Source: Azolla caroliniana (lineage: Eukaryota > Plantae > Polypodiophyta). Taken from it: 64,000 bases of DNA. Under the pieces are notes generated by a model. It saw only the letters and a list, made by a program, of their open reading frames with translations, did no database searches and had not been told where the DNA came from. The DNA is taken from the NCBI GenBank assembly GCA_043228905.1, contig JBHGNT010000018.1, forward strand, positions 15,686,001 through 15,750,000, written 5' to 3'. This document shows, one piece after another, positions 8,065 through 53,157 of the stretch; position 1 is the first letter of the stretch; every line of letters begins with the position of its first letter. The position numbers were made by a program, and so were the translations under genes.

Positions 8065-8069
8065 AATTG

Positions 8070-8528
8070 TGTTACCCGTTCCTTTGGGTGAACACCTTCG
8101 ATTAATCTGCGGCTATCGGTATTCAAGGGCGTGGTACGTGAAGGCTCCTAACAGAGGCGTCGAGAGGGAGACAGGGCTCAGAGAGAAAACACTAGCAAGG
8201 TCTTGATAGGCGTGGGCGACGTTGAAATCATAGGTATGAATCAAAGCATAGACACATGGAACAAACTGGGCACAATTCAGATATATTACTGCGATAGAAA
8301 AAAGATTACAGAACACAGCCTACGGTCGGTGACCTTACAAGATTCTCTAATTACGAGGGACTCAGCTAGTGCTTCCGCCTATATTTTTCTTCTCTCTCTC
8401 CTCTGAGGTACTGGTCCTCGTTTAAATAACTTTTCCCCTAATACACAGCCGAGCCGTCGGTGGCCCGTGATACTCGAACTCGGCGTTTGCTAATTTCCTA
8501 ATTTTACATTTCTGTCCTCTGGATAACA
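8070..8528 (-). repeat. 5' LTR of gypsy element 1 (~459 bp)
   Basis: TGTTA...TAACA termini, TATTTAAA box, followed by PBS. Confidence 0.75.
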
Positions 8529-12744: not shown

Positions 12745-12749
12745 ATTAT

Positions 12750-14440
12750 GAATCCCCTTTTTCATAAGAAGAGAAGTTCTCGCAATTGACAAGCACCAAC
12801 ACATCAAATCAATATCGAGCTCCCTTCCTCTATTGTTAGGTAGGTCACAACTGGTATGAAAACATATCCTAAGAATATTTGCCAATTACTTTCCCACATC
12901 GTTGTTAAGCACTTGGATCACACCATGATCGGCTGTGAAGAAGGGCGCATCAACAAGGACATTGTACAGCTAAAAGACCCATGAAGAGGAAATAGTAAGA
13001 ACCAATCAAGGGAAACGGAAGTTAATAGAGGGCCAAGTGTGAAAGGGCCACACTCCAAATGTAAAACCTATATAAACCACACGGTGGTGTCTTTGTAAGG
13101 GTTCTTCCATTTGTAAAGATCTCAAGCATCCTCTCCTTTTCTTGTAACCTTTAAGCATAAGAGAGGTTAGTGATTGTGTTTAGTGGAGAAACACTAATCT
13201 CTCTTCCTTGTTGGTGCTAGACCTCTTAGCAAGAGGGTTAATAAAGATATTCTTTATTCCTATTGTCTATGAGAATGAGTGTGAGAGAGTTAGAGATATA
13301 TTGTTCTAAGTCATTGTTAATCGTTAAGTGAGTGTGAGGCTCGAAGGTGTTCGACAACCATCTTTGCTCGATTCGCCATCAAAAGAGTATACGTCGGTCC
13401 GAGCTCCTCAAATGATATTGAGAAGGAATTAACTTCGTCGATACATAGATATTGCACAATCATTATTTACATAGGGCATGGTGGTTCGGATATTACTTGT
13501 TCGCTCTATTTTTCTTTATGATGCTAAGCCTAAGGACCATTACATACTACATTTGGAATAATTTTGGTTTTAGCCCTAATTCCAAAATAGTTCTTGTCCT
13601 TCCTTTAGTGTCCAAGCAACCATTATGGGAATTACTAAGTAGTACCCATTATATACGACATGTGGAAGGCTCATTTCTCTCCTATTTTCCATCATGTTAG
13701 AGCCTCACCAGTTGAAATGGTACGTAACATTTGGCTACACAAGGATAGTATGATAGTCTTGTTGGAGATTAAGAACCAAAAGTTGCTTAGTGTCTCCAAT
13801 CTCTTAGTCAGTGGAAAGATATAATAAACATTTGGTTAAGTGCTTGTCCACTTAAATGTGCCACTTATATATTTATGAAGGCCAAAATCCAGATAAAAAG
13901 TTACATTTTTTCATGTCAAAATTACATCAAACCAAATTGAAACTATGAATTAAACTTCGAAAACAACAATATCATAAATAAAAATCAGATTTCTAAGTCT
14001 TTCTCTATTTCATGCCAAAATCATGTAAGGTCCTTTGCCTATTATTTGAAAAGAAACCCAAGTTTGTTCAATTTACAATTGTAATGTTTGGTAACTATAA
14101 GTACATTTTGAAATTTTTGTTACAATTATATATTGAAAAAAAATGCTTTACAATATGTAAAAACCTTCACACCTAGAGATATAATATGGAAGTGATTCAC
14201 CAATAGAATTGGTAAGTAATATTTGATTGGATATGGTTCATACTTTAAAGGGCCAATGGGATTGTATTATTGGAGACTCTAACAATAAAGTTGGTCCTTT
14301 CATCAGTTTCTTACTCTATGGAAAGCTACTCCACTTATGTCCTCGAAGAATGACACTCCTTTTTGGCACTTTCAACCACCAAGCTGGATGTTCCTTCAGC
14401 CAGTCCTTAAGAATCAAAACTATATAAATCAACAAGATTA
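12750..14440 (+). mobile_element. L1-type LINE 3' remnants (two partial copies)
   Basis: Segments match the reverse complement of 14450-15100 (LRIFANYFP; DMVHTLKGQW). Confidence 0.65.
12903..13458 (+). repeat. Solo LTR (556 bp) inserted in a LINE remnant
   Basis: TG...CA termini, TSD ATCGT/ATCAT, TATA box CCTATATAAA and AATAAA. LINE sequence rejoins across it. Confidence 0.75.
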
Positions 14441-15111
14441 ACCTTGAACTTAACAAGGAACTTCAGACCAATACCTTGTATGCATGTTTCTTTTAAAAAG
14501 ATATCCTTTCATTAGTGTAAACAATTTATAAGATTTTGGACTATATGTTATTGGCGGAGGAGACAACCATTTTGGTGGCCGAAAGTACCAAAAAGGAGTG
14601 TCATTCTTGGAGGTGATAAGTAGAGTAGTTTCCCACAAGGTAAGAAACTCATGATGTTGAGTAGCTTTATTGTCAAAATTTCCAACAATATAAACCCATT
14701 GACCTTTCAAAGTATGAACCATGTCCAACCAAATACTTTTAACTAAATCAGTTGGTGAGGCTTTAACATGATGAAAAATGAGAGAGCACCGAGCCCTCTA
14801 GATGCAATATGCAGTAGTACTACTCAATATCTCCCATAATGGTTGGATTTCCTTCCTTATCCCTAAAAACTGCAAAGACAATAATGGAAATGCATGGACA
14901 CTTCCAGATTTGGTCTAAACCCCATGGTTCATAGATTTGATGTCGTAATGGAAAGCAGAGCGGACAAGTGATCTCTAAACCACCATGCCCCATGTGAAAA
15001 GCGATGGGGGAAAGTAGTTAGCAAATATTCTAAGGGGGCGTTGCCATACCATTTTAGACTCAATGTAGTCCCATAAATCATGTTTTTGAGTTTCAGGTTG
15101 TAAATGACAAT

Positions 15112-15457
15112 GAGCACAACTAGAGGATTTGTCCATATTACACAACCATGTGCCAACAGGCAAGGCTAGATGTACAAGTAGCCATTGTACATGTAATATT
15201 TGTTGTGGTTGTTTTCTTGCCCATAGATTAACCCAGAACTTAGCAAGGAACTTCGGAGTAATACCTTGCTGACTCGAATATTGAGAGCACAACTAGAGGA
15301 TTTGTCCATATTACACAACCATGTGCCAACAGGCAAGGCTAGATGTACAAGTAGCCATTGTACATGTAATATTTGTTGTGGTTGTTTTCTTGCCCATAGA
15401 TTAACCCAGAACTTAGCAAGGAACTTCGGAGTAATACCTTGCTGACTCGAATATTGA
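15112..15457. repeat. Tandem duplication, 2 x 173 bp
   Basis: GAGCACAACTAGAGG...GACTCGAATATTGA occurs at 15112 and 15285, apparently identical. Confidence 0.9.
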
Positions 15458-15458
15458 A

Positions 15459-15907
15459 TGTTTATCTTGGGCCGGACTAGCCACAAATACAGGGTATCCT
15501 TCCGGATCACTTCACCAAAGGGGTGGTTACAGGTAGGATGTTAACTAGCATAGATATGATTCTAATCCGACTATTTCTGGATCGGTTCCGAAATGGCAAT
15601 ACACACCAATTGATTAACACACATAAGATAGTAAAGCATAGACAGTCGTAGACAAGATACACAATACTGAATTCCAGAAACAAACTTGCATTACTTCCGT
15701 GTTCATTACATTGCTTTCTGGATCCTTTTATAGGCATCCGGTTCTGATTACAAAACGTGCCATACCGACAACCGGCTATGAATCGGTCCGAATCCGGATC
15801 AGTGCAACTATTCTAGATCCATCTGTTCCTATTATAATTATTACTAAATAATACTAATATTTCTTTCCGACTTGTCCCCCACTTTGTCCTTCATACTCTT
15901 GCCAACA
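15459..15907. repeat. Solo LTR (449 bp)
   Basis: TGTT...AACA termini with 5-bp TSD TTGAA (15454-15458, 15908-15912). Confidence 0.85.
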
Positions 15908-18286
15908 TTGAAATGCAGTTGGAAACACATCCCATCTATCCAAAAGCATGTATTCCCAACTGTATAGAATATTGGAAAAAATTAAAGTTGTTACTCAGTA
16001 AATAAATGAGTCCCAATCTAATTTGAACAAAGGTTGTTTGGCCAACGTCCACAACTTCTAATTTATATCCTCTATCGGTGGATCAATATACCATTTACAA
16101 TCATCGTATCCAATTACCCTTATCTTGTGTTCAATAGCATAAGGATAATCGATTACCATTTCCTCTGAATGAGACAATATCCACCTTAAAAATTTGAAGG
16201 TCTTATCCTCTACATACCCCTTTACAGTCAAGACTACTTCCAATCTTGAAAAAACACTAACCCATCTATAAAATGTGGAAGCATACAACCATCTCGACGA
16301 ATTTGTTGGAAGGTTGTACATAAATTGGCCTTGAACAAGTCTCAATATTTAATGAAGAACATCGGTGTTAAACCATCCATGCCTGGGTAACTATTTTTGG
16401 GCAAAGCATGAAGTGCTTCACTCATTTCATCATAAGTAAAGACTTCCTTATGTTGAACATTCATGTTTGGTGTTATTCTTCATTCCAACTTAATCCATAC
16501 ACCAAAACCAACATGTTAAATCCTCGTTGGAAAAGGACTCTGCTGATAATAGGCTGGAATAGCACCATGCGGCTATCTGCTCATCACATGAGGGTCTAAT
16601 GAGGTGGTCTCATTCTCATGTTGTAACTGTTTGATCAAAACAACATTATGATGGGGTCTCATTGCATGAAAATGTGCATTTATCACCCATTTGGGTCCAC
16701 TTAGATCCCTATGATGATACTGAAATTTTGCACATTTTTCTAGCAACACGAGTTCATGTTTTGCTGACCCAAGTTGCGCAACAATTAATCTACAGTGTGA
16801 ATGGCGTTCCCGTAACCGATGTAAAGAAACTAGAGAAGTACGATACCGTTTCTCCTATTATTGAAGCATACAAAACCTTTCCTTAAATTTACATCCGAAA
16901 AATTATGAGATTTCTAGGAAGTCATTAGCTACCCTCATGCTCACTGATTCCCATAAAACATCTTTTTGAGATCATAATTCAGCCACTTGCAATGAAAAGC
17001 TATTGTCTATCAAAAAAAATTCCGGAATCTCAAAATTTTCGATTCGATACGGAAAGAACGACTGGAGCATGATCTGAAAAGCTAGTTCTTGGCAATATAT
17101 GTATTGTGGTAGTAAATGAAAGGAATTTGTTGGATACGTAGAATCTATCTAAGCGAGATAAATTGATACCATTTAAATGCCTATCTGGTCGTGAAGATTT
17201 TGTATGAACCAACAAAGGAGCATGCCAAACATCTAACACTTGCAAGGAAAACATTAATTGTTCCCAAATTGCCAATTCATGTCCATGTATTGTAGTTGAG
17301 CTACCTCCCATTCTATCAATGGGTTCCTCAAGCATGTTGAAATCACTAGCAATACACCAATGGTCAAGAGGAGGCAAAGTATTTTGTAAAATCTTGCCAA
17401 AATTGTTTTTGAGCAGAGGCAATGTTAGGAGCATATACATTCAAGAGTCCCCATATGTTTTGTCCTACTTGATTATAACAAACGGAACTACCAAGGAAAA
17501 CCACTTGCTTTTGGATAATGAATGGAACCCACCTTTGGGCGACAGCCATACAGACACCACCACGAACTTCCATGTCGCGTATTGCGGTGGGACCAAAACA
17601 TGTCCCAATTCCCAGAAAGAAGAGAGCCATAACAAGAAATTCTAAAAGCATTTAAGTGATGTTCTTGTACTAAAAAGAAAGTCTAGAGAACCACCCACTA
17701 AACACATACGTACGTACATACCATACTTATACATATACATTACATACCATACATCCAAGCATGCATACACATACACACCCGACGTGTCTATTATGACACA
17801 AATCATAAAGAGGGTTGGTGAGGGAATCGCGGCCATAGACAGAGAAGGTTGCTCAGAGAAGGTGTGTGCGATCTGCACCGTCGAATTTCGATAAGGAAGA
17901 AGGTGCGAAAAATAAAGTTGTGCAGAGGTCACCCAACCCTATTCAGAGGTTGCCCAACCGAAATATATTTTTAAAAGGGTCGCCCAACCAACTCAATAAA
18001 AGATGCAGGTCGCCCAACCGTTTATTTTTAAAGCGGTTGGGTGACCAGTTTAAGCAGGTTGCCCAACTACTTTAGGGTTTATATTGAGTTGGTCACCCAA
18101 CCAACTCAATAAAAGATGCAGGTTGCCCAACTGATGACTATAAAAGCCTGAAACCTGTCATTATCTCTCATTTTTTCAAACGAGATTGATAGGTTTCTTT
18201 TGCCGGGAAAGAGTTGGGCGTAAGGCGGCCTACAATCGACATACACAACAATCAATCTCCTCCATCACTATTCCTAGGTATGTATT

Positions 18287-18709
18287 TGTTAAGGATTAGG
18301 TAATTAATTAAGGAATAATTATTACCTAATTATGTGATTAAGTTAATAAGAGAAAGATTATGTGATATGTGTGTGAGAGGAAGAGAGAGAGACTTATGAA
18401 TAACACAAGATGGGGGATGAGTAAACTAGAGTGTATATTATAAAACATCATCAAATACAAAAATACCTTCAATGAGGTATATATAGGTTTCATGTGCAAG
18501 GGTGCACATGTGCTAGGAGAATATAGGTACAACGTGTAAGTCCTATATTAAATGAGCATGGAGTGGTGGATCTACAATGTATCCCACTCAAGTACAAAAT
18601 CCTATTTAAGGCTTTATGGTCAACACACTAACTAGATTCTATCTAGGTAACTACTAAGTTACATGTGTTGACTAACTAACTAAACTAAGTTGAGCTTGAT
18701 CTCTCAACA
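18287..18709 (-). repeat. Solo LTR (423 bp) inside the MULE
   Basis: TGTTAA...TCAACA with perfect TSD GTATT on both sides. Confidence 0.9.
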
Positions 18710-19440
18710 GTATTAAACCCTATCACATCACTTTTTCTATTTTTTTTACATGTGGTAGGAATAGTTGAGGGATTAGGGTTTAGAGTAGTTGAGGAATTTT
18801 GTTTCTTGTTGAGGGATTACAATGATAAGTAGGTTGAGTTGGTCACCCAACCAACTCAATAAAAGATGCAACTCAATAAAAGTTTATTCAATCATCTGTC
18901 TTTTTCATGTTTGTTTTTACAATAATCTCTCTCTTCTTAGTGGAAATGTCTCTCTTTTTTTCATGTACTTCTGCAGCAAATTTTGTATTCATAAATCTCT
19001 AATGTATTTCTTTATAAATCTCTAATTTGTTTTTATTTATCTATTACTTTGTACACAATCTCAAGCATTCTGTATAAGAATATTGAGAGGATTCCAGGAA
19101 AAACAAGGATATTAACAATCTCTCCGTTCTTCACATTATTTTTGTAATAATATTTCTCGTCTTTCCATAATAATCTTTCTTTTCCATGTATGCATTTTAT
19201 GCACAATTCAATGGTTTTTCATCACGTCGGGGTACAATATCCATCATCCCTAATGTGGGTTATGATGATGATTTTTGCTTGTTTTTTGGGATTCAGTTTA
19301 CATTGCTAGAAACTTAGGTTATAGCTGAAATTATAGAAAAATACTAGCCATTTTGGGGGGGATTTTGGGTTTCATTCAACATTGTTACAGCTTAGACAAA
19401 TGTTGAAATTCAAATTAATGTAAAATTATTCATCTTTAGG

Positions 19441-20689: not shown

Positions 20690-20900
20690 AAGTGTTTATC
20701 TCAAGTTGATTTGTTGTTTTAAACCAATCACAAGTTGTGATCTAAAGTTGATTTGCTGTTTTAAACCAATCTAAGTTGTGATCTAAAGTTGATTTGTTGT
20801 TTTAAAAGTTTCTCAAGTTGTGATCTCCAATAGATTTGATGTTTTAACCAATCTCAAGTTGTTTATCTCAAGTTGGTTTGTTGTTTTAAACCAATCTCAA
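20690..20900. repeat. ~41-bp tandem repeats (AAGTTGTGATCTAAAGTTGATTTGTTGTTTTAAACCAAT)
   Basis: About five degenerate units visible. Confidence 0.75.
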
Positions 20901-21294
20901 ATGTAAACCAATTGATTCGCGAAAAATCTAATCTCTTCGAAAGAGCTGATTTGAAAAAGTTGTTTTAAACCAATCTATCTCCCAACCCTTGTAAAAAACA
21001 TCAATGGTAATAAACCAAGTTGCCCAAACCTCTTAAAATTAATTCTCTTTTGATATGGTCACCCAACCAAGTTGCCCAAACCTCTTAAAATTAATTCTCT
21101 TTTAATATGGTCACCCAACCAGGTTGCCCAAACCTCATAATCTAGGTCATATTAACATGTAAATTACCTAAACGGCCAAAAAAATGGTCATATTAACATG
21201 TAAATTAATCACATTTTAAGTCACATTAAACCCTTCACCGTCATTTTAATCAGAGTTGATTCCATCTCCAGTTAATTACCTTTTAACATCAAAT

Positions 21295-21520
21295 TCAATT
21301 AATCACATTCTCTATCTTAATCTGAAGCAATTAATCACATTCTCTGTCTTAATCACGTTCTTATAATCACATTCTCTATCTTAATCAGGTTCAATTAATC
21401 AGATTCTCTATCTTAATTAAGTTCAATTAATTACATTCTCTAGCTTAATCAGATTCTTATAATCACCATCTCTATCTTAATCATAATCTCTGTCTTAATC
21501 ACATTCTCTAGCTTAAATTA
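21295..21520. repeat. Degenerate tandem array of AATCACATTCTCTATCTT upstream of the transposase
   Basis: Repeated motif visible about 8 times. Confidence 0.7.
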
Positions 21521-21558: not shown

Positions 21559-24500
21559 ATGAATCCAAATGAAATAGATTTCATCACGTCCTTGTATGAT
21601 TCTGAGGATGGTTATGCATCACCCTACTCCGCAACCATCGATGAAGACTTGGATTCATCTACATCCGAAGACTATGAGTCGGCTTCATTCGAAGAAGAGG
21701 CAAAGGAGGTTGATCCCTTCATGTATTGTTCGGCGGGGTATTTTGCGTTCACTAGAGGTATGTACGATTTAATGCTTAAAGATTTATTAGGTCAAGTTAA
21801 GGTAACATTTGAAATATTAAGCACACTCGCGGGGTATTTTGCGTTCACTAGAGGTACGTACGATTTAATGCTTAAAGATTTATTGGGTCAAGTTAAGGTA
21901 ACATTTGAAATATTAAGCACACTCGCAAGGGGTGCACCTCTTAATTTACATGAATGGAGGCACATGAAGAGTCGTCTCACGCTTAGAAATGAGAATGCAA
22001 TACACCTTAAGGCATCGCCTCATCTTCAGATTGCGCACGTAGAGAAATGGAGGGAGATAGTATTGGCGTCGCATTGTGGCGCATTGCACCGTTCTTTGAC
22101 AGGTACTCTGACAGAGTTAAAGAGACTTTGGTCCAATGACCTTCGTGACCATGGGATCCCTAGTGCGTATGTGAAAGCAGTGATTGAATGTGGTTGTCAA
22201 GTTGTGTCGAGGTTAACTCCATCTGACATGGAGGGGACAAGTGTCGTGAAATATAAAAAGTCTAGACCCATAGAAGTGATCAAGATAGAGGCACATAGGG
22301 TTGATGATACGCTCATAGATGTTCAATTGAGGTATCACACACACTTCCGTACAGGGGTCACAAGGGGTGCACATGTGACTAGGTATAATTGTCACCGATG
22401 CGGTGGGGCCAACAAGCAATATCCATTCACTCAACGTAGAAAGCATTCATCTCGATGTGGGTGTACTTTTCATATCAATGCTTGAATGAATGGAGGGGTT
22501 GACCATGGGACAATGACCCTTTCAATATATGGACCTCATACGGGTCATGTATCGGGAAGTAGACTAGATGCGTACTATTTGCCAGTGGCCCCAAATGTTA
22601 TAAGTTGTTGTAGAGATGACCTTTTTGATGTTGGTTGCGCATGACATGTGGCACGGATGAGCATGCATAAGGAAGCATATCATAAGTCCAAGGCTAGTCC
22701 ATTAGACCTTGTGAGTTATAGGTTCTTTATGATACCAAAGGAGGTCAATAACATGGCCAACAAGTTAAAATTTGGGAGTGCCATGTCAGGGGTTGATTGG
22801 TCTTTGATGATGCAAGATGCTTATGCCCTCCGAGATTTTGGGAAGGTGGCTCATGTCCAACCCTACTTACTTGGTGAATATGGATCTCCCACAAGGCAAC
22901 CGTTCATCTTGGTGCTCCAAGATGAATGGATGTTAGAGATGTGTGAGCGATTGTCAATAAACAACTCTTGGGCAATCGACTCCACGTTTAAAATAAACCA
23001 ATTTGGCTTGCCATTATATGCAGTTGTGGCCCCAAATGCCATGGGAGTTGGTATCCCATTATGGTACATGATATGTAGTTCTGATAAGGGGTCTAACCAT
23101 GAGCAAGTAACTTTAGAAACTTGCTTGAGAGTCCTATTCGCACAGATGCCCAATGTGAGGCCAAATGCCATAGTCATCGATAAAAGTTGGACATCATATA
23201 ATGCCATAAGTAATATGGTTGCAACAGACCAATTATCTTGGATAGTTACAAATGGGCAAAGGTCGTAAACACATTGTCGACTTTTGTTGTGTCACTTCCA
23301 CACAAACAAAGCATGGTTGGACAACTTGTTGCTAAAGGTAAGTGCAACTGAGAGAAACCATCTTTATAATCAGATGCGCCAACTCATGCAATGCATTACG
23401 GAATCCACATTCAATGCCCAATGTGAGGAGTTAAAGGTAGAATATGCAAACAAGCTAGGTGTTTGGCAATATATAGAAGGAGGATGGTGTGGCTTGACAT
23501 GTGTGTGGAGGAAACTATGGCCCAAATTTGGTAGAATGTTCAACTACGGACATGTTGACACTACCAATCTTGTGGAGAGACATTGGCAGTTTATCAAATA
23601 TACTGCCTTAAGAGGGAGGATAAACCGATCAATTACCGATCTTGTGCATGTTTTAATCGGGGACAATCAAACTGGCACTTGCATCGGGAGTACTATTATT
23701 GAATGGTACAAGCAACAACAAGAAATATGTGAGAGTGGTAGATTTGCACCACGTGCAAATTGTAGGGATCAAACAACAAGACTTAAAGAGGCCGAAAGGC
23801 TACTAGAGAGGTATGAAACTAATGATGCGACAATGCATATTGTGGACAAGCCCTGATATTGGTTTAAAATATTGAGCTTGACAAAACCAAATGTATGGTA
23901 TAATGTATCACTCCAATGTTCATATTGTGATTGCCAAGACCCTATGAGTAAATGTAAGCATATACTCGGCGTCAGGATGATTATTGAGAGGCACGTGCCA
24001 CATCTATGTGGGTCATTGCCTTTTATAGATCATGCAACCCATATGCGCAATGACCATTTCACAAAGACGGAAGTGGAGGCAAGGGTAGAACCAGTCGAGG
24101 AGACAAACCCTACAACATCACAAATGGAGGAATGGGAGTTGAAAATACAAACGGTTGAGGGGGCTATTCACTGTCTTAGGCAAGGGTTACGATCCCTCGA
24201 CCGTGCAACAATTTTGGCATGTATGGAGTCCATTGAAGAAATAGGTCAGACGTTGGTGTATCACCTAGGTGCACCAAAACCAACCAATGCAGAAGACCGT
24301 GGATCCATAGGGCGTAAGCAAGCAATTGGTGCAAAAAGGGGAGCATCAATCAACATTTCACAAGATCTTATTGGCAGCTCCCCAAACACTTCCAAGGCAC
24401 ACACAGCAAAAATGCAAAGAGGCGCAAGTCAAGCTAGGAGGCGGTTGCCAATATGTGCGATAGAGAAGATGCAATGCCTTGACCTTTAGATCAAGGGACT

Positions 24501-38773: not shown

Positions 38774-39223
38774 TGTTGTTCAGTCGACAATTGCTATTTT
38801 GCTGACATAGTATAAGACGAACGTTCTATCAAGAAGTTGTGGTTAAACGAATAGACACGAATGATCTATAAACTTATTGGTGATAACAGACACCAAGATC
38901 GTGACTTATGTAATATAGTTTAGATAGAAAGAACTAGATGGCAAGAAGCAATCCGTACAGAGAGATTTCCTAACCAAACTTCATATTACTAAATACAACG
39001 ATAGATTTTTACAATGCCTTCGGTTCCTTTTATAGGTAACCCGAAGGTCTTTTCTCATCAAGAAATCCTACTGCCTATAATTAACAAGAATTACAAAACT
39101 TCGTATCTAACTATGTCCTATTCGGCTATCTGCCGAGTCATCGATCCGAACTGCTGATCCGACTCCGATTCTGACTCCGAACATCTTTCCGATTCCGACG
39201 CATCCATACTTGTCCGAGTAACA
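38774..39223 (-). repeat. 3' LTR of gypsy element 2 (~450 bp)
   Basis: Minus strand reads TGTTAC, TCGG-rich U3, CCTATAAAAGG, TTGTA, T-rich U5, and ends in CAACA. The left boundary could be 38777. Confidence 0.72.
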
Positions 39224-39225
39224 CT

Positions 39226-39266
39226 TGGCACGCCCGTGGGCCAGGACGTTGTCCGGCGAACCCACG
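39226..39266 (-). other. tRNA-3'-half-like structure ending in CCA at the PPT position
   Basis: Minus strand CGTGGG-TTCG-CCGGACAACGTCCTGG-CCCACG-GGCGTGCCA, then AG and the LTR TG. Confidence 0.6.
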
Positions 39267-40783
39267 AGAACCCTTTAATCTTGCTGCTTTGAGGAAAGAT
39301 CCTCCTCCATCTCCAAATCCTCGTTTGCATCGTCCTGCAAAATGTCGAATAATGAGGGTTTTGCTTTCTATGTTGCCACGCCTTCCTCGTCTTCGTCTTC
39401 ATCTTCGGTATCCTCCCCGTCGTTGTTTTCCTGTCGGGTTCCTTTGGTCGATGGTCTTGGCTCCGCTTCTGTTTCTGCTTCTGTATTTGCTTTCGGTGCC
39501 CCGAGTCCAGGTGTTTTGGTGACTCTTTCAGCTTCGATATTGTCCAACTCGACGGATGTCTCAACATCATGCTTGTTGAATTCCTGCATGATTCGGTTAA
39601 TTTCTTCTTTAAAATAAGCCACCATGTCGTATAGGTCCTTAGCAATATCTTCCTGAACTGTGGTCATTGCTTCCTTCAACATCTTGAGGAAGCCTTTGCC
39701 CTGAACTTTCCTATTTTCTCTGTCGGCTCTTAATAGTTGAAGCTCCGCGGCTTGTGCCGACCATGTTTGCCAACCCTTCTCCAGTGATTCATTGACCAAA
39801 TTTAGGGTGTTAATTCGGTGACGTCTAATGATCGCTTGAACCCTGTCATGAGTCATTCTAGCCTCAAACTGTGTTGTTGCCAATGTTTTCCATAAATCAA
39901 TGATTACCGCATTGGTATGTCCTTCTACCTGCATCAGTTTAGCTTGTGCCTCTAAGAGGTCAAGTCGCCGAGAAACGACGACTGTTTGAATTTCTGCACA
40001 TTGGTTTTCCAGCTTCGCTTTCTCTTCATTCCAGTTGTTCTGCTGCTGAATTATTTTTCCGTTGATTTCGTTTATCAGTTTGTCTTTACTAGCCAATTGT
40101 GTTGTAAAACAAGTCTCTTGGCTCTTGACATACTCTTCCAGTTCCTCGACTTGTTGCCTTGTAGTCTCTTGCTGTTGGGCTAACTGTTGGCGTAAATCTT
40201 GCATTACATTATCCTTTTCCCCCAAACATCTGTCGGTCGTCGTTTTTGCCAACTGTAATCGAGCCTCCATTTCCCTGAACCTATCCTCAGTCTTTTCCGC
40301 CTTAATTTCTGCCTCTCTTCGTGCTTGTTCAGCTTGGTCCAACCTCTTTTGTAATTCTGAATCCGTCTCCAAAGGTTGTCTTTGTCACTCTGGCTGGAAT
40401 ATCTATTCTCTAGCTTTTTCTAGAGCCACTTCTTCTTCTTGCAGTTTATTTTTCAACAACTGATTTTTTGCCTGCATCCATTTATACTGTGCATTAAGCA
40501 CATCTGCAGCTGATGTAGCCTGTTTGTATAATTTGGCCATATCCCTGGCCGCTCTACTAGCCTTTTCATATTCTCAGTGTACTTCCACCAGTGCCTAATG
40601 TAATGGTGGTATTTGAATGGCTTCACCTCTATTTTTAGCATGTCGCTGTCGACCAATTCTATCCACTTCCGCTTGCTCATTTGGTTTGATAGCTCCACAT
40701 AATGACTTTTGGATCATTATTTGATCTCTGTGCTCTTGCACCATTCTTTCCGACACTTCTTGCAGTCTTTTAGCTAACCATTC

Positions 40784-43700
40784 TGTTGGGATTACGGTCC
40801 CTTCGGATGGGATGGTCGGATATCGGAGATGAATGCCGACAAGCCCGGTTTCGGTTTCGGAACCGGATGATGAAGACCCCGGCTTCGGAGCCGGATGACG
40901 AATGTACCCGGAACGAGATCCGGATGCGGGGACATATCTGTGAATATGTTTGCCAAGGGCCCTTGAGGCTATAGTTGTAAATAGCCCCAAAGTCATATGT
41001 GTATAAATATGACTTAGGGCAAACAGTTTTGACGTTGCTACTCATTTTTCTGTTTTTCCACTCAAGAGGAGTGAAGAGAGAGCAGCCGTGAGAGAGATAG
41101 AGCGTGAGAGAGGAGGAGGTCGACGCCTCTGTGTATTTCCGCCGCCTGTGGCGAGGACAACGAGCTCAAGGTCGTCGCCTTGCAGCTCGCCATTGTATAT
41201 TTCTCTGTGCATAGTTTTGGTTTGGAGTCTTGTACTCCCGTGGTTTTTCCCGTCTAGGGTTTTCCACGTTAATCCCTGTGTATTCGTGTTCTTTCTCTGT
41301 GGTTCCTATTTTCTGCTGCATTGATTTGTGCTTACTCGGTTGTGGCCGACTGGTGAAGGTTAATCGGAGTGTCGATTGCTCTACAAACTGGTATCAGAGC
41401 GACTGCTGCAGAAAATGGAAGGCGGCGGCAGCGGGCAGCCGGGGATGATGGTGCTGAATGCACAGAATTACGCCGACTGGAAGATCAAGATGGAGGATCT
41501 TCTGATTGTTCGGGACCTGTACGAACCGATCGACAGGTCGGAAATACCGAAGGGGGTACTTGAGTCGGAATGGAGGCTTTTGAACCGGAAAGCCGTAGCA
41601 ACCATTCGGCAATACGTAGACGTGAGCGTTCTACAACATGTGGCGAACGACACCAACGCATATGAGATGTGGCGGAAGCTGTCGGGCCTCTACGAGAGGA
41701 AGAATGCGTTGAACCGGACCTCCCTGATGAGGAAGATAGTGAACCTCAAGTACCGGGACGGCGAGAGTATGGTGGAACACGTAAGCACGTTCATGGGATT
41801 CGTGAACCAGCTTGCGGCGATCAAGTTCCCGTTGGAGGATGCAATGCAAGCCATCATCCTGATGTGTACATTGCCGGAAAGCTGGGAGAACTTGGTGGTG
41901 ACTCTCAGCACCTCCTGCACCGAAGATAACTTGTCCCTACAAACGGTAAAGACAAGTATTTTGAACGAAGAAGCGCGTCGGAGAGATAAAGAACCGGCCT
42001 CCGATCCGAAGATGTTGTTTACCGAATCGGATCGGGGAAGACAATGGAACCGGAGTCCGCAAAGACGGGAGAAGTCGGGGACCCGGTCGCAGTCAAGAGG
42101 AAGACCCACATGCTTCCACTGTGGGAAGCCGGGGCACTTCCGAAAGAATTGTCGGCATTACCGAAAAGACAACGGAGCCGACGACACCGATTCGAAGAAG
42201 TCTTCGGAACGGAACGGTGCTTACCGGGGAGCCACGGACCGGAATGGTTCGGATCGGCGAGGGCAGGACAAGAAAGGAACGACGGCACTCGCGGCAAGTG
42301 AGGAAGAAATCATGCTCATCACCGAAGAAGGTGAGCTAAACATTGCCGGCGATGAGACGACCTGGGTGGTCGATTCCGGAGCGTCGTTCCACCTGACCCC
42401 GGAAAGAAGATACTTCTCATCCTACACAGCCGGTGAGCATGGCTGTGTTCGGATGGGAAATGAAGGTACGTGCCGGATCACCGGCATAGGAGACGTGTGG
42501 TTGACAACCTCGACCGGATGTAAAATGCTGCTGAAGGATGTCCGACACGTTCCGGAGGTTCGATTGAACCTGATTTCGGCCGGGAGGCTAGACGATGAAG
42601 GCTACACAGGTAGCATCCGGAACGGCGTAATGAAGTTCAGCAAGGGGAGCCTGATAGTGGCTCGGGCCTGGAAGATCAACACACTGTACCTGATGAATGC
42701 CCGGTTATGTCCGGAAGAGCTGAATGTGGCAGTCGACACTGCCGGTGAGCTGTGGCACAAAAGACTGTGCCACATGAGTGAGAAGGGGATGAAGAGGCTT
42801 GCAGAAGACAACCTTATTCCAGTGAAGCATGTGCACCTGGAGAAGTGCACCGATTGCCTGGCCGGTAAGCAGAACCGAACCTCCTTCCACTCAAGGCCAC
42901 CGACGAGACGTAGCGCACCATTGGAGTTGGTGCACACCGGTGTGTGTCAGGTAGAAACGAAGTCACATGGCGGAGCCCAGTACTTCGTAACATTCATAGA
43001 TGATCATAGCCGAAGACTATGGACGGCACCGATGAAGACAAAGGACCAAGTGTTGTCCGTCTTCAAAGAACTCCACGCGAGAGTGGAAAGAGAATCCGGC
43101 AAGAAGCTCAAAGCGATACGAGCGGATAACGGAGGGGAATACCGGGGACAGTTCCAGGAGTACTGTCGCACGAAGGGAATCCGGCTCGAGTTTACTGTGC
43201 CGAAGACGCCGGAACTGAACGGGCTGGCCGAGAGGATGAACCGGACCATAATGGAGAGGGTCCGGAGTATGCTGGCGCATGCGAAATTACCCAAGGGGTT
43301 TTGGGCTGAGGCAATGTCGACGGCGACATATGTGATAAACCGATCACCCTCAGTACCTTTGGACGGAGACACGCCGCAGAGAGTGTGGACCGGTAGGGAA
43401 GTATCTTACCGGCATCTGAAGGTGTTCGGGTGTCTCGCATACGTGCATGTGGCAAAGGACCGTAGAGGAAAGCTAGATCCAAAGACCCGGCCATGCATAT
43501 TCCTCGGTTACGGCGACGACGAGTTCGGCTACCGAGTATGGGACCCGGTCGACAAGAAGATATTCAGGAGTCGAGATATCATCTTCATGGAGAACAAGAC
43601 ACTCGCCGACTGGGAGTCGGAGAAGAAGATGAAGAGCTCCAAGTCGACCGGTGAGGATCAACTCTACGAGGAGCAGTCCCGACCGGCAAGGGACCGGTTA

Positions 43701-46100
43701 GCACTCGAGGATCCGACCGAAGACGGTGAAGAAACAGAACCGGCCGAAGAAGATGAAAATGATACCGGAACCGGCCCCGATCCCGAAATGGATTCGGATG
43801 AAGAAGAATCGGAAGAACCGGTTACCGAAGCTCCGGAACGGAGATATCCTCTAAGAGAGAGAAGGGCCCCCCGGAGATTTCCGGAACCAGAGCACGTGCT
43901 GCTAACCGACGAGGGGGAGCCGGAGAGCTTTGAAGAAGCAAAGCATGACACCCAGAGCCGCAGGTGGTTGAGTGCCATGCAGGACGAGATGGATTCCCTG
44001 CATGAGAACCACACATATGAACTTGTGGAGTTGCCGAAAGGAAAGCGGGCACTTCGAAACAAGTGGGTGTTCAAGCTGAAACCGGGAGATGCCGGAAACC
44101 CCCCGAGATACAAAGCCAGGATCGTGGTGAAGGGGTTTCAGCAGAAGAAGGGCGTCGACTTCGACGAGATATTTGCCCCGGTAGTGAAGATGACCTCCAT
44201 CCGGACGGTGCTGAGCATAGCGGCAAGCATGGACCTCGAGGTAGAACAGATGGACGTGAAGACGGCATTCCTTCACGGTGACCTCGAAGAAGAAATCTAC
44301 ATGCAGCAACCGGAAGGATTCGAGAAGAAAGGAAAGGAGCACCTGGTATGCCGGTTGAAGAAGAGCCTTTACGGACTGAAGCAGGCTCCCCGGCAATGGT
44401 ACCGGAAGTTCGACTCCTTCATGACCGACGAAGGGCACCTCAAAACGCAGTCCGACCATTGCATGTTTGTGAAGAAGTTCGAAGGAGGAGACTTTCTAAT
44501 ACTCCTCCTGTACGTGGACGACATGTTGATCGTCGGACGAGACCAGGTCAAGATACGGATGCTGAAGAAGGCTCTTCACCGAACCTTCTCAATGAAGGAC
44601 CTGGGTCTGGCGAGACAAATACTAGGGATGCACATCATCCGGGACCGGAGCAAGAAGCAGTTGTGGCTGTCACAGGAAAAGTACGTGACAAAGGTGCTTA
44701 AACGGTTCAACATGTCGAAAGCAAGACCGGTCGGATCGACCCTCCCGGCAAACTGCAAGCTGTCCAACAAGCAAAGTCCCAAGACAAAGGCTGAAAAGGA
44801 GGATATGATGAAAGTGCCGTATGCCTCAGCCGTCGGGAGGTTGATGTACGCCATGGTGTGTACGAGACCGGACATAGGATATGCAGTCGGAGTGGTGAGC
44901 CGGTACATGAGCAATCCCGGCAAAGAGCATTGGAACGCGGCCAAGTAGATACTCCGATACCTGAAGGGCACGGCAAACGTGTGCCTCCGATTCGGCTTCG
45001 GTAAGCCCGAACTCGATGGCTTCACCGATTCGGATATGTCGGCTGATGTAGATACCAGCCGGTCCACATCAGGGTATGTGATGACGTATGCAGGGGGAGC
45101 TGTTTCATGGCAGTCGAGGCTGCAGAAGACGGTTGCGTTGTCGACCACGGAGGCGGAGTACATGGCGGCTGTTGAAGCCGGCAAGGAAATAATATGGATG
45201 AAGGACTTCATTAGAGAGCTCGGTATCCGGCAGGAGGAGTACCGACTCTACTGCGACAGTCAGAGTGCAATCCACCTTGCAAAGAACGCGGCCTATCACT
45301 CCCGGACGAAGCACATCCAGCGAAGATATCACTGGATCCGGGAAAGGATAGAAGACAAGGAGTTCGTGCTGACGAAGGTCCACACGGACGAGAACGGGTC
45401 GGATATGCTGACCAAGGTGCTCACGCTCGACAAGCTGGAAGCATGCCGGAAGAGGATCGGATTGGAGAGACATCCCATGCCGAAGTGAAGGGGGAGTTTG
45501 TTGGGATTACGGTCCCTTCGGATGGGATGGTCGGATATCGGAGATGAATGCCGACAAGCCCGGTTTCGGTTTCGGAACCGGATGATGAAGACCCCGGCTT
45601 CGGAGCCGGATGACGAATGTACCCGGAACGAGATCCGGATGCGGGGACATATCTGTGAATATGTTTGCCAAGGGCCCTTGAGGCTATAGTTGTAAATAGC
45701 CCCAAAGTCATATGTGTATAAATATGACTTAGGGCAAACAGTTTTGACGTTGCTACTCATTTTTCTGTTTTTCCACTCAAGAGGAGTGAAGAGAGAGCAG
45801 CCGTGAGAGAGATAGAGCGTGAGAGAGGAGGAGGTCGACGCCTCTGTGTATTTCCGCCGCCTGTGGCGAGGACAACGAGCTCAAGGTCGTCGCCTTGCAG
45901 CTCGCCATTGTATATTTCTTTGTGCATAGTTTTGGTTTGGAGTCTTGTACTCCCGTGGTTTTTCCCGTCTAGGGTTTTCCACGTTAATCCCTGTGTATTC
46001 GTGTTCTTTCTCTGTGGTTCCTATTTTCTGCTGCATTGATTTGTGCTTACTCGGTTGTGGCCGAGTGGTGAAGGTTAATCGGAGCGTCGATTGCTCTACA
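40784..46100 (+). mobile_element. Full-length young Ty1/copia (Tnt1/Tork-like) element
   Basis: 602-bp LTRs 40784-41385 and 45499-46100 with about 3 differences seen; TSD CATTC; PBS TGGTATCAGAGC 41389-41400; PPT GAAGGGGGAG before 45499. Confidence 0.97.
41415..45488 (+). pseudogene. copia gag-pol polyprotein with one premature stop
   Basis: CFHCGKPGHFRKNC, WVVDSGAS, RADNGGEY, NGLAER, LYVDD and RNaseH. TAG at 44946-44948 (W to stop); integrase VHTGVC instead of VHTDVC. Confidence 0.93.
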
Positions 46101-47596
46101 CATTCTACCAGTTCATATGATGTTCCGAACTACAGAATGGTAGCTAGCTCATGTGCTGCTGTCGGGATGTCAGAAAAAGCGAGTGCCTCTTGCACCGTTG
46201 CCGTTGATGCTTGCCCTTTTTGAACTCGTGACGTGTCATCTGGATTCACACAAGGTATTTGTGTGGTTTGGGCGGCTTGATCGTTAGTTTTCTTTTTCTT
46301 CTGCGCAGGTTGTTCTTGCTTTGGTCTAGAGTATCTTTGGGACTGTTGTTTCACCCTTCGTTGCTTCGGCGGTTGCTGGTCAATGTCGACTCGTCTCGAT
46401 TCCTGTTGCTGTGATGGTTGCTCGTATGTCATCCCTCATTGTTGCATCCTTTGTGGTTGAGACTCCGGTGGTTGAGTTGGCGATTGCTAGGTAGGTTCGG
46501 GTTGCGGTATCGACTGTTGAGACTGCATCGACTGTTGTTGTTCCGATTCTTGTTGGTGCCTTGGTTCCGGTTGGTCAAATTCGGTCTGAGTGGTATCGTC
46601 TTGTGTTGATTCTTCTTCCGACCACTCTTCCCGTTGGACTTGTCGTCAGGTTCGGGATGATTGTACCTGAGGCGGCCGATGCACCTCTGATCGGTTTTCC
46701 GGCTCTGAAGTCAGAAATAATACCGATAACCAACGAGCAAAAATCGGCTTCATTGGTTTTCTTTTTTGAACTCTGTTCAGTTGCTCTCTCAAAGCATCTG
46801 CCGATAGTAGCCCCCAATTGAAAGCTTCGCCTTCATAAGCGACGATAATAGATCCAACCCTCTTTTTGGGCATACAGTAGAATCTGGGACTAACAAACCC
46901 TACTTCCAATAAAAATTTTGCAACTTCATGAAAAAACACGTCCCTACCTCCTTGTGTCTAATACGCTTTGGTAGAGGGTGAATACTCACCGAAATAGGAC
47001 CACAAAACATCCTCTGTGACCTTGTTGACAGCGTCGAACCCACCTCTTGGCATCTCCAACACGACCCTTACCTTCTTATTTGTGATCGTCGAGACATTGA
47101 TTTCTACCAACAAAGCTTCCGTGTTCGGGTGCGGCTCTGTTTTTGCGACTTTCGAAAATCCCTGTAACTTATTGCGAACAAGCCAGCGGCGCAAGTTGTT
47201 AGATACGACAATCAGCATGTTGTCGTCGTCAATTAACAGATCGTCACTCAGTGATGGCTGTGAGAAACGCTGTGGGCTATGGCGACAAAAATTAGAAAAC
47301 CTATGAGCTCGAATGCGTTTCTACTTATGTGGTGAAACAATCATTACAGAAATAGGTTTTAAGAGATTAATTTTTTGCATGATGCCTAGGGAATAAAAGT
47401 ACTATTAATGTTGTAATGACTAGGCGTACTAGTGGAATGATGGCTAGAAATAGTAATAATGACTAATAGAATATGCCTCCACTACTTTTACTTATAGCCT
47501 TTTGAAATTACTCCAAGAATCTCTTCGTGAGAGTTAGTTATGATTTGGCAAGAAAATATTCTATAGTTAGTTTTATTTATTTATTTATTTATTATT

Positions 47597-50500
47597 TTAC
47601 TTTTCTTCCGATTCATCCTTGAATGGATTTTTCGGCATGTGTCCACGATATGGTTTAAGCCAGAAACCATTGACCCATTTCGGTAAAATTTCACCTGATA
47701 GGGTTCCTAGTTGATACGTACCATTTTTACTGTTCACGATCCAAACTGGTCTCGTCCATCTATACCGAAGTTTTCTTGGCATCGCCCCCATCTCGGTATG
47801 GAAAACCAGTACTGGTTTCCCGATTTTGAATTGAGATTCGGTTTTCCATCGGTGTCGATTTACAAATGCCTTGGTTTGCCTTTGCTTGTGCTCTAAAGCT
47901 GTCATAGCTTGTGGTCGATCTTCTTTTAATAGCAATAAAGATTCTTTCCGAATTTGCTCCGACTATAGTTCATTTAATTTTTCGGTTGCTTGTATTCGGA
48001 GTGTCGGGATCTGGAATTCGATTGGCATCACTGCCTCCAATCCAAAAGCCATTCAGAAAGGTGTTGATTTAATAGATGTTTTGTACGATGTGCGATATGC
48101 CCATAACGCACTATGCAACTTTTGATCCCAGTCCGTACGATTCTCATTTACTATCTTTTTGAGTATCGTCTAGAGGGTTTTGTTTGTCGACTCCGCCAAT
48201 CCATTCGCTTGTTGATAGTAAGGAGCGCTTTTCTTATGAACCACTACATAGTAGGTAGACAATTCATGAACAAGTTTGTTAATGAAATGCGTACCTTGAT
48301 TGCTCACTAATTCTATTGGGCAGCCGAATCGACACCATATACTTTCGTACAAATTTTTTGCTGTTGAAGCTACCGTATTATCCTTAAGAGCTTTAGCTTC
48401 TACCCACTTCGTACAGTAGTTAGTAGCCACTATAATATATCTATTGCCTGTTCTTACTACTGCCGGTTTGAAAGGACCTACAAAATCCAACCCCCATTTC
48501 TGGAAAGGTTCAAGAGGTAACACCGGTTGAAACGACATTCAGTCCCTTTTTGTCGGTTGTCCCATACGTTGGCATAAATCACATTTCCGACAATATTTGA
48601 CCGCATCCTTCATCACTGTCGGCCACCATAACCCACTGTTCCATATTTTTCTTGCTGTGGTTTCCCCAGCATAGTGTCCTCCTACAATTCCACAGTGCGA
48701 TTCCTGAAGAATGACCGATTTTTCGAATTGTCGTACTGTTCTTCTCCAAATACCATCTGCTCCTTTATGATACAGAGTGTCATTCAAAAGACAAAAATTA
48801 CGACTCCGTACCGCCAACCTTTTCCTTTTGTCTGCTGATAGATGTTCGGGTGGTAACCCTGTTGTAAGAAAGATTGTCATTTCTGAGATCCAACCATCCT
48901 CACTTTCTTCATTTACACCCTGTGCATTTATTGCTTCCACTCGAAAAAGCTGACCATTCGGAAAATCATCCTTGACACCCGTGCCTTCTTCTCCTGACTC
49001 CAGTCGACTGAGATAATCGGCCACTACATGCTGTACTCTTGGCCGATGTAAAATGTCGAATTCGAATTCTTGGAGTAGAAGAGTCCATCTTGCTAACTTG
49101 CCGGTTAACTCTTGTTTCGAGACCAAATAAAGAAGAGCCGAATGATCAACATGAAATGTAAAGTTTTTCCCCAAAAGATAGTGTCGAAACTTATTGACAC
49201 TATAGATCATTCCTATAGCTTCCCTCTCAGTGGTAGAGTAATTTCTTTCTGCTTTTGAGAGTTTCCGACTAGCATAGTAAACTGGCATGTACAAGTCGGT
49301 TCGGTTAACTACATTAATGCACTTCCGATTGCGATGTCTGATGCGTCGACAAAAACATGGAATGGCTTATTCCAATCAGGTGGTTGAACGACTGGAACTT
49401 TGGACAACATTTTCTTCAGACAATCATATGCATCCTGTTCCACACTTGTCCACTGAAAAGGAACTGTATGTAAGGGAATGGCGATATCCGCAAGATATCT
49501 TATCATTTGGTTGTGCCATCTTATCTGCCCCAAAAACTGATTGAGAGCTTTAGCATTTGTGGGTGCCGGTGCTTCCAGTATGGCTTTAACCTTGTCAAAG
49601 TCCATTGCAATTCCTTCTTGACTGACAATATGGCCTAATAATGTGCCACTAGTGACCCCGAATGCACATTTAGCCGGATTTAAACTAAGGCGTCCTTCCT
49701 GATATTTCTCCAAACATAGTCGTAAATGCTCAAAATGTTCGGTTTTCCGACTATAAACAGCAAAATCATCCAAAAATACTTGCATAAAGGCAGGAATGTA
49801 ATTCCCAAATATTTCCTATATCACTCTTTGAAATGTCGCCGGAGCGGTCTTCAAGCCAAACATCATTACTATTGCTACAAACATTCCCCATTCTGTAACA
49901 AAAGCTATCTTTTCTTGATCTTCCGGATTCATCTGAACCTGATTATAACCACTAAAATCATCGAGGAAACTATATACTTCATGGCCAGCTACGACATCCA
50001 ATATACCATCCGTAAATGGTGATGTAAACGCATTCATAACGGTAGCCGCATTTAGTTTCTAGTAGTCGACACATACCCGAATTTTGTTATTCTTTTTCGA
50101 AACTACGACGATTGGACTTAACCATGTCGATTTTTTCACCGGACGAATAAACCCTACTTTCAAAAGTTTATCTATTTCTTCTTTAACTTTAATAGCATAA
50201 TTAGGATTTAATCGGTACCTGCATTGTTGAACTGGTTTTGCATCCTTATGCAGGTTGATTTGATGTTGACAAAAAGCTGGATCTAGTCCCTTCATATCTT
50301 CAAAAGACTAGGTAAAGACATCCTTATATTGCTTTAATAATGTTGTTAACCTTTGTTTGTCCGCTTCTATCATATCCTTAGCAATGAGTACTGTTTTCAA
50401 CTCATTGTCCCCATCTTCTTCTACCAAATTTATTTCCTCCAATGCTGAAGCTTGAACTCGTTGGGACACATTCATCTCTCTATCGGTAGCTTCTTGCTGG

Positions 50501-52500
50501 AGTCGTATTTCCTTCATTGCTTGCTCATCTATTGGCAATTCCATCTGGGAATCCACATATGGCATCAAAGCTTGTAAAATATCTACTTCGAACAAAGGAA
50601 TGATTTTCGGATTATCATCAAAATACTGATTTTCTTTGACCTCGTCTAATCCTTCCATCATATTGACAAACTTAGCATATACAAGCAAACACTGTTTGCT
50701 TGTCGCAACCTTGTTCTATGTCGAAACCCTGATTTTCGTTTTGCCTTTTCTGAATGTTAGTTGATTTTGATTCCAATTTTGCTTGATGTTAGCCGTCTTT
50801 AACCACGGTCACCCTAATAACAAAGGATATGCACCCGGAGCTTCCAAATGAAGAATTACTGCTGATATCAAAAAACTATGACCACCCAATGCCACCTCTA
50901 ATTGGCGGAGTAAACTAATTGGTCGTACCGTAGTGGTATTCGCCATTCTGAGCCAAAATGGGCAACCTTCCCATTTAGTAATTCCCAACCTATCACAGGT
51001 GGTTTTATTAATGACATTCACTCCTGGGCCCCCATCGATAATTGTATTTTCGATTTCTTGACCTTGAATTATTACCTTAATTGATGGATTTTGCTCATCC
51101 ATGATTGAAGGGCTGGTGCTCGACTGACTATAGTTTACCGATACTTGTTTTGACCCCTTTTGGGCAATCAATGTTGCCACTTTTTCGGTAAATCTAGGGA
51201 CCAACTTAAGTAATCCGGTCAGTGGTAATGACACTTGGCAATCTGCTAAGAGCTTCTAGGCTTCCTCTTGTTCTAGTACAACAATCACTCATGGTAATTC
51301 AGTAGCATGGTTAATTTCATTGTCTTGGAGCATTCGGTTTACATTATTTCTGTTTGCTTCCTCTACCCATTCCTTGGCTGCTTTCCACACTGCTTCCTGA
51401 ATCTCCCACTCGGATTGTTTACTTTTGCTTCTAGTGGTTACTTGCTCTATTTCCGATATAACCATATTAACCGTCGATCCTTTCCCTTTAGTAGGGCACT
51501 GATTAGCATAATGACTAGTTTGACGGCAAATATAGCAAGTAGGAACAAACGTTCCACTTCCCTCGCCTTGCTCAAACTGACTAGTCCCATCATTTTGCAT
51601 AAACTGTTGACCATCATTCAGCGATTGCTGAAACTGTCGTGAGGTTTTCGGCTTGTAGAATTTTTTATTTTTATACCGGTTCTGCTTAAACTGTCCTCCA
51701 TTTTGCTGTTGTTGATGCATATTCGGTGGTACTGAGAATTCTTGATTTTGTTGAAAATTATTTTGTTAAAAATTATTTTGTTGAAAATCTTGATTGTGCT
51801 GAAAATTACTTTTTTGGAAAGACTGATTATTTTGTTGAAAAGCTGGATTCTGCTAGAATTTATTTTGCTGAAAGGTTTTATTTTTTTTGAAAATTATTTT
51901 GTTGAGCTTGTGGAAAACTATTTTGTTGGTATCCATTATTGAATGAATTCTGGTTATTGTGGTACCCATTTTCCGGAAAAATTTGTCTTACCGGAGCCGT
52001 CGTCTTATTAAGCAAGTTATACTCACATTGCTCGACCGAATAAAGTTTAGAATGACATATTGTGCAATGTGTTCGCAAACTACACTCGATCGTTGAATGA
52101 CCGGTATTTAAACAAGTAGTACACTGAACTGCTTGTCGAAATTGTAACTCCTCCATCGTTGGCAGTGTACGATTTAGTGCTGACATATCCATACTCCGTA
52201 CATTTATCGGCTGTCGGCCCATAGCGATTGCCTTATCAATCACTTGCTCGATATTTTGATTCCAAAAATCGAACACCTTCAGTGTTGTTCGTAATGGTTC
52301 CCGAATTGCTTCAAGGAATACATCCTTCAATTCATCATCCGGAATAGGCCTAGAAATTTGCAGTTGCAAATTCTGAAAACAAATCACGAATTGAGACACC
52401 GTTTCCTGTTGCTCCTAATACAACGCATAAAATTGCGCTATCAGATCTTTTTGAGGTATTTGACGATGAAATAACTGCAAAAATTTGTTGTTCAATTGTT
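47597..52500 (-). pseudogene. gypsy gag-pol of element 2 (fragmented)
   Basis: IIDGGPGVN, RVCVDY, VFLDD, FVDAS, YSTTEREA, FQKWGLDFVGP, ANGLAE. Confidence 0.9.
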
Positions 52501-53157
52501 CAAATGTAGAGTCACACCATATAATCTAGGGTCAGTACTTCCTGATTTAACTGATAGCCAATCTTCCGACGAAAATCAGCCAGAAGCGGTATCATTTTAC
52601 GATATCTGGAGTGAGGACAATATGTCTTATCCGTACTCAAAGTTTCACGAGGGAGCTGATGCTGAAGCGCATGTGAGGGATTTCATCGTCAAATCTAGAG
52701 TCACACCATTTGGTTTATGATGAAGATAATGCATTGATTGGTACATCTGAGGATGACGAGGAGGAATCTTCATTGTATATTAGTTATAATAGTGATTCTC
52801 TGTAAAGTAGTGATCATGAATGTATTTTTGGCTATTAAGTGTAACTACCTTTCGCATGTAACAAATCGAGTAATATAAAAGCATGTGTTTTGAATTCTTT
52901 TGATTCCTATGAATATCGTTTCTTATAAAAAAACATTGGTTGTAAAGTTTGTGATATAAATTAAACCCTAAACCTTTTGAAATTCCTCTTTTTTTATTTA
53001 TTTTAAAATCACGAAAATGGTGGATTTTCAACCTTTTTCATAGTATATTTGAGAATGTATGATACTAGTATCAATGTGTTTTGTAATATCACTAAAAAAG
53101 TACTAAAATCAAACAAAATAATCCTTGTCGTTCCATTTATGCGCGATCCTTCCACTT

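Follow-up and report, generated by a model that had tools for sequence, protein, structure and literature searches.

The 3' LTR of a broken Ty3/gypsy element is directly preceded, at the place where a polypurine tract (PPT) would be expected, by a sequence that copies the 3' end of tRNA-Arg and ends in an encoded CCA. In the window (the whole stretch of 64,000 nucleotides that was analysed) and in related elements we observe the cassette, its position and conservation, an ordinary 5' primer-binding site (PBS) and no purine tract; the cassette is real, conserved and under selection. Judged from sequence comparisons, it is likely an LTR retrotransposon replication signal of a new variety, one that serves PPT-free, tRNA-type priming of the second strand. 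We think it probable that the elements carrying it form an autonomous lineage lacking a PPT, in which both strands start from tRNA or tRNA-shaped primers at two mirror-image split tRNA sites of a single design.

The element is read from the minus strand. Its 3' LTR (38774..39223, minus strand; about 450 bp, TG...CA) is delimited by contig depth, which climbs from about 38774, and by loose ends flanking both limits, those behind 39223 and before 38774 showing low agreement among the contigs placed on the window. (The loose-end consensus at 38774, from 6 contigs of run X1, holds a PBS-like 13-mer whose orientation misfits the expected junction.) A broken gag-pol encoding gag, RT, RNase H and integrase (47600..52510, minus strand) was recognized with Pfam and tblastn, and the order RT-RNase H-integrase, on one strand and between LTRs, is that of Ty3/gypsy; the closest named relatives in pol, at 40-53% identity, come from a conifer, liverworts and a fern. 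No 5' LTR of the cassette-bearing element was found within the window. Pfam detected no chromodomain in the window ORFs, in L009-type relatives or in P0001/P0002, and no extra archaeal-type RNase H was found in full-length P0002, P0004 or L003 pol.

In the direction of gag-pol there follows an extra 3' ORF (39275..47218, minus strand), located by tblastn with P0121-P0125 and the ORFs of L009 and L026. The frame is broken by stops and split by a young Ty1/copia insertion (40784..46100, plus strand) with a 1,194-aa open frame, LTRs that are 99.5% identical and a 5-bp target duplication; the tblastn matches fall on both flanks of this insertion. The extra ORF stops 10 bases short of the cassette and has a conserved acidic C-terminal motif just upstream of it. 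Its length in relatives is about 1,000-1,170 aa, with intact frames (936-1,170 aa) at L009 1381-4893 and L026 916-3726. It matched no Pfam family at the cut-off, a protein search returned only 5 homologues, and among the fetched loci its matches were confined to members of the clade; atlas leads of 0.85 and 0.82 to Transposase_32 and ATHILA clusters lay below the counting level. (Elsewhere the window holds tandem arrays of 42, 32 and 96 nt at 20690-20939, 21256-21511 and 21733-21924, an exact 173-nt duplication at 15112-15457, and a MULE transposase fragment at 22645-23268.)

Reading the window from 39266 to 39224 on the minus strand gives the letters that had been described for this junction, with the LTR then beginning at 39223. 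The cassette itself (39226..39265, minus strand; T arm, acceptor 3' strand and CCA) is a copy of the last 28 nt of tRNA-Arg that is 1 base short and has 13 nt added. In tRNA numbering it spans positions 49-76, with the 13-base insert between 58 and 59 and the missing base at 65/66, which is the junction of T-stem and acceptor in the proxy used here. Along the minus strand the T-stem 5' strand (39265-39261) is followed by a loop remnant (39260-39257), an inner hairpin of 6 pairs with one bulge and a 3-nt loop (39241..39256) within which the inserted 13 bases lie (39255-39243), the T-stem 3' strand (39240-39236), the acceptor 3' strand with the discriminator (39235-39229), the encoded CCA (39226..39228), which would be the primer 3' end, and a two-base spacer (39224..39225) ahead of the LTR. 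The opposite strand of the cassette reads as an extended tRNA-binding site. Thus, the likeness to the 3' half of tRNA-Arg and the placing of the CCA 2 nt from the TG of the LTR, both claimed in the preliminary description, are upheld, and the small hairpin said to be grafted into the T-loop is indeed present, now redrawn as six bulged pairs.

The tRNA used for comparison is a proxy, the bacterial tRNA-Arg(UCU) gene L087, which matches the cassette over its last 28 nt and may differ from the host tRNA. L087 was found via the tRNA-Arg motif given in the preliminary description, and all 14 loci that matched this motif were tRNA-Arg (13 UCG, 1 UCU). The terminal 11-mer of the tRNA type occurs once in the window, at the cassette; for a 10-mer, the chance of a match at one fixed position is about 4e-7, and 0.05 matches are expected over both strands of the window. 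ARAGORN found no tRNA gene in the window, and Rfam returned 2 chance-level matches over 39000-39500, neither of them a tRNA.

The absence of a purine tract was likewise confirmed. The last 15 nt before the window LTR contain 9 purines, in runs of at most 3, whereas five distant relatives whose 3' LTR was identified (L007, L008, L037, L073 and L077) have 11-13 purines in their final 15 bases, the tract of L077 being weak, and none of the five carries the cassette. This distribution suggests that the cassette is a derived trait among non-chromovirus elements, judged on a tree that is unrooted and built without reference lineages. (Another LTR in the window, at 12903-13458, is 76% identical to that of L007, whose family is Athila-type and has an ordinary PPT; gypsy families with and without a PPT thus coexist in the host lineage.)

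Relatives were sought in a metagenome scan, from which we took the best 80 of 528 confirmed stretches, drawn from 8 of 64 parts. Among these 80, 31 were at least 57% identical to the query, and 3 of the 31 (L003, L009 and L026) reach an LTR. In each of the three, read on the pol strand, the end of the extra ORF is followed by the cassette, two bases, the LTR and then an ordinary PBS. The pol sequences of the four families are 64-77% identical, and blastn found no match of the LTRs of L003, L009 and L026 to the window LTR or to one another; a CCA-type end, 2 nt and TG are nevertheless common to all four, the spacer being constant in length and variable in its first letter. A quick integrase tree with 100 rows (fetched rows only, unrooted) places the window element, L009, L026 and a related element at the start of the window, element 1, in one 23-row clade with an SH-aLRT of 99; L003 was left out because its integrase is cut short. 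(In another contig, L035, a gypsy pol within positions 1-18746 is flanked by nearly identical direct repeats of 6.2 kb, which may represent a very long LTR or else a tandem copy.) Viral contigs gave no match to two patterns and no confirmed relative among 13 candidate stretches, and bacterial genomes gave no match to the cassette pattern.

These layouts bear out that the LTR is co-oriented with gag-pol, that the locus is a 3' junction, and that the tRNA-like sequence is not an ordinary PBS, since the relatives have theirs after the LTR on the pol strand. Another reading, in which the LTR is the 5' LTR of a plus-strand element whose ORF is antisense, is rejected by the arrangement in L003, L009 and L026. 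Two findings had been named beforehand as telling against the proposal, namely a normal PPT in other copies, and homologues of the LTR serving as plus-orientation 5' LTRs with this sequence as an extended PBS. Neither was encountered, because all three contigs have the same cassette in place of a PPT and an ordinary primer site after the LTR. That the locus is a rearrangement of two elements, or a functionless assembly artefact, is accordingly largely refuted and highly improbable: each of the contigs L003, L009 and L026 is collapsed, with one LTR between internal ends, and none is a two-LTR copy with a target duplication, but in independent runs there are contigs that extend across the LTR, the cassette and the extra ORF, four divergent families agree, and the insert covaries.

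The ordinary PBS resembles the cassette in design. Element 1 (integrase about 71% identical to shared relatives) has a 5' LTR at 8070..8528 (minus strand) that matches the L009 LTR in three segments. This LTR is followed on the minus strand by a 13-nt tRNA-Arg-type PBS (8064-8052), after which come a hairpin (8046-8033) and 5 nt that match the T-loop of the tRNA (8032-8028). The same design, in which a hairpin of variable loop separates a short match of about 13 nt from a 5-nt T-loop match, is seen at window 8064-8028, L009 5517-5553, L026 4203-4240 and L003 925-960, with a wobble in L026; L007, L008 and L037 differ in having a full-length PBS. By comparison with L087, the PBS is of the tRNA-Arg type in element 1, L009 and L026. 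L003 differs, its PBS at 925-935 resembling that of the distant L077, and its tRNA-Arg cassette is still present.

Covariation of the stems, which it had been proposed to examine, was scored on an alignment of four sequences, that is, few related sequences with a structure drawn from the same four and with the outer stem of L003 partly misaligned. In the inner hairpin all 24 cells are paired and 3 of the 6 pairs are altered on both sides, whereas the outer, tRNA-derived stem barely changes, with no double change in 5 pairs. The covariation score was matched by 1 of 500 shuffles, and slid controls paired in 31-45% of cells. Folding energy provides no evidence for structure, because the cassette folds no more stably than shuffled sequences (z +0.47; 137 of 200 shuffles fold equally well); the evidence is the covariation. 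The window family differs at tRNA positions 58 and 60, a double change that preserves a hairpin pair and not the tRNA pairing. All four families lack the 1 base relative to tRNA, and L003 has a one-base change in the CCA, at the second-last primer position.

Contigs cover the cassette in three of four runs, from three organisms (267, 550 and 326 contigs; none in run X13, which does not prove absence); note that matching at an 80% cut-off favours conserved copies and that depth does not equal copy number. No RNA sample was listed as containing the region, a result without bearing on its expression. In run X1 the summed depth is about 54,000-68,000 over 39220-39251, 22,000 just within the LTR and 1,500 just upstream, and many loose ends lie at 39264-39267, which together argue that subfamilies with other flanks share the cassette. 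In the three runs no variant of at least 2% was seen at 39224-39230, 39237-39241 or 39259-39264. The partner positions 39246 and 39252 change at matched depth (2366/2024, 962/890 and 1189/1208), consistent with a compensatory swap whose linkage is read from these depths. A variant at 39233 makes up 15%, 3% and 31% of depth, and the common acceptor-strand changes (at 39233 and in L026) turn a G-C pair with the tRNA into a G-T wobble; G-to-A is the commonest decay type among the variants, too. At 39255 a variant makes up 47%, 12% and 6% of depth; it gives U-G in the sense RNA and a mismatch in the minus-DNA hairpin, and so leans towards a fold at the RNA level.

Of the two mechanisms first proposed, priming by host tRNA appears to fit best, and we give about an even chance to a scheme in which a second host tRNA anneals to the tRNA-Arg mirror site on the minus-strand DNA and primes the plus strand. 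The minus strand would be primed by tRNA at the 5' PBS, as usual, and RNase H would clear the RNA over the cassette. The exposed DNA could then form 11 pairs with the tRNA at positions 66-76, which make up all of its acceptor 3' strand plus the CCA; pairing could continue along the T arm, leaving the inserted hairpin as a loop at the non-pairing m1A58. RT would extend the natural 3' hydroxyl of the tRNA across the 2-nt spacer into U3, which would yield the usual two-base overhang for integrase; a two-base overhang before TG is the usual integrase substrate. RNase H would finally remove the second tRNA in a sequence context identical to that of the first. The m1A58 modification is described as blocking base-pairing and halting RT (PMC13191261). 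Duplexes computed with RNA parameters between the minus strand and the bacterial proxy involve almost the entire 28 nt, at -43 to -50 kcal/mol, and are unbroken over positions 66-76.

An outer stem devoid of double changes around an insert with double changes in 3 of 6 pairs is what an outside pairing partner predicts. In favour of the host tRNA there would also count that families with non-alignable LTRs and diverged pol share cassette and spacing, that the 5' PBS is split in a like manner, that the acceptor changes stay wobble-compatible with the tRNA, and that the five distant relatives have a purine-rich tract and no cassette. Against it count the L003 mismatch at the second-last primer position (no such variant reaching 2% in the three runs), the need of L003 for two different tRNAs, the base missing from all four families, the change at 58/60 that keeps a hairpin pair, the suitability of the 39255 change to a sense-RNA fold, and the fact that the wobble changes are also of the commonest decay type.

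These same observations bear on a primer made in cis, an option absent from the preliminary description, which we regard as the main alternative, possible but doubtful. A segment of the genomic RNA would refold into a T-arm-like hairpin, stay paired to the minus DNA over about 10 bases, resist RNase H, be cut at or near the CCA and prime the plus strand as a tRNA mimic, much as a PPT does. It is on account of the missing base, the changed end of L003, the 58/60 double change and the 39255 change that it keeps this standing: all four cassettes form the nested hairpin as sense RNA, or nearly so, the last two changes favour an RNA fold, and the L003 end change and altered PBS are compatible with it. 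However, because an RNA-DNA hybrid is self-complementary whatever its sequence, the fixed outer stem and CCA would require the added assumption that RT reads the sequence specifically; a precise cut would be needed after the CCA, yet the next base varies; and the 5' PBS, which is obliged to bind tRNA, has the same split design.

The other mechanism first put forward, an element-encoded primer that pairs with the 5' PBS, is disfavoured. We consider it unlikely that the tail pairs with the PBS of its own element, whether as a self-made minus-strand primer or in RNA circularisation or dimerisation, with the plus strand primed otherwise. Such pairing is computed at 11 pairs and -25 kcal/mol in L009 and is partial, at -20 kcal/mol, in L026, but L003 has changed its PBS and kept its cassette, with a duplex of only -8 kcal/mol, and the tail and PBS of L026 are altered at different positions. 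In addition, a cut at the CCA would detach U3-R from that RNA, and the missing PPT and constant two-base spacing would be left unexplained.

More improbable still is that a purine-rich stretch further upstream is the real primer, or that the mirror site serves as an ordinary PBS from which an antisense transcript is reverse-transcribed. In other subfamilies the sense strand is rich in purines at loose ends immediately upstream of the cassette (with an agreement of only 0.48-0.59), but the four families that were read directly share no such tract, this stretch is either the acidic end of the extra ORF or sequence just beyond it, and a primer some 45 nt distant would not define the LTR end. An antisense genome is at odds with the ordinary PBS and gag that come after the LTR on the pol strand.

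For LTR retrotransposons and retroviruses alike, the second strand is regarded as generally primed from the PPT, which is also a landmark for annotation tools. If priming by tRNA or a tRNA mimic holds for this clade, a diversified and successful PPT-free lineage would show that plus-strand priming can be rewired, and would offer a natural system for testing the way in which RT and RNase H select primers and take them off. Pipelines based on the PPT would be predicted to miss or flip such elements, and the tRNA-complementary site on the cDNA could be a target of 3' tRNA fragments.

In literature that covered subscription papers incompletely, we found no element in which a mirror tRNA site replaces the PPT. 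Canonical priming uses a tRNA at the PBS and an RNase H-resistant PPT, as described for HIV-1 (PMC13191261) and for Tf1-type elements of fission yeast (bioRxiv 10.1101/2022.12.06.519325). The clade shares with canonical elements a tRNA-type PBS after the 5' LTR, TG...CA LTRs and a fixed primer end just before the 3' LTR, and differs in having a tRNA 3'-end copy ending in CCA where the purine tract would be. The three primer types set out by Neumann et al. 2019 are all for the minus strand, and most elements in that account have a PPT (PMC6317226).

Among named lineages, Athila, a non-chromovirus OTA lineage (PMC6317226; ATHILAfinder, bioRxiv 10.64898/2026.03.20.713144), is described with features that the clade shares: the order RT-RH-INT, the lack of a chromodomain and of an extra RNase H, and a 4-7 nt spacer between LTR and PBS. 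The long extra ORF between pol and the 3' LTR of the clade may correspond to the one described for Athila. The Asp/Asn-type PBS by which Athila is recognized in ATHILAfinder occurs in the neighbouring loci L007, L008 and L037, whereas the PBS of the clade is 13-nt, split and of the tRNA-Arg type; moreover, the 3' junction of Brassicaceae Athila is reported to have a conserved PPT (bioRxiv 10.64898/2026.03.20.713144), which the clade lacks. A tRNA-Arg PBS is given as dominant in Ogre (89%) and TatIII (64%), and an extra RNase H domain as present in 92-98% of the Tat clade (Ogre, Retand, TatIII) (PMC6317226). Element 1, L009 and L026, not L003, share the tRNA-Arg PBS with Ogre/Retand/TatIII, but the clade has no extra RNase H, which separates it from Ogre/Retand/TatI-III. 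Phygy/Selgy, with a tRNA-Trp or tRNA-Ala PBS and no extra ORF, and Chromovirus, with its chromodomain, do not accommodate it either.

Helenus TRIMs, as outlined by Kojima 2024 (PMC10886601), are LTR elements that also contain tRNA-derived sequence. There it lies within the LTR and is interpreted as a promoter for Pol III, the elements have a PBS as well as a PPT, and in the account given of this sequence the author found no priming role (PMC10886601); in the clade, unlike in the non-autonomous Helenus/TRIMp3, the cassette is outside the LTR, there is no PPT and gag-pol is present. Self-priming in Tf1, Tcn1 and TAR, as described, concerns the minus strand and a primer from the 5' LTR, and the fission yeast elements retain a PPT; it does provide a precedent for an RNA primer encoded by the element itself.
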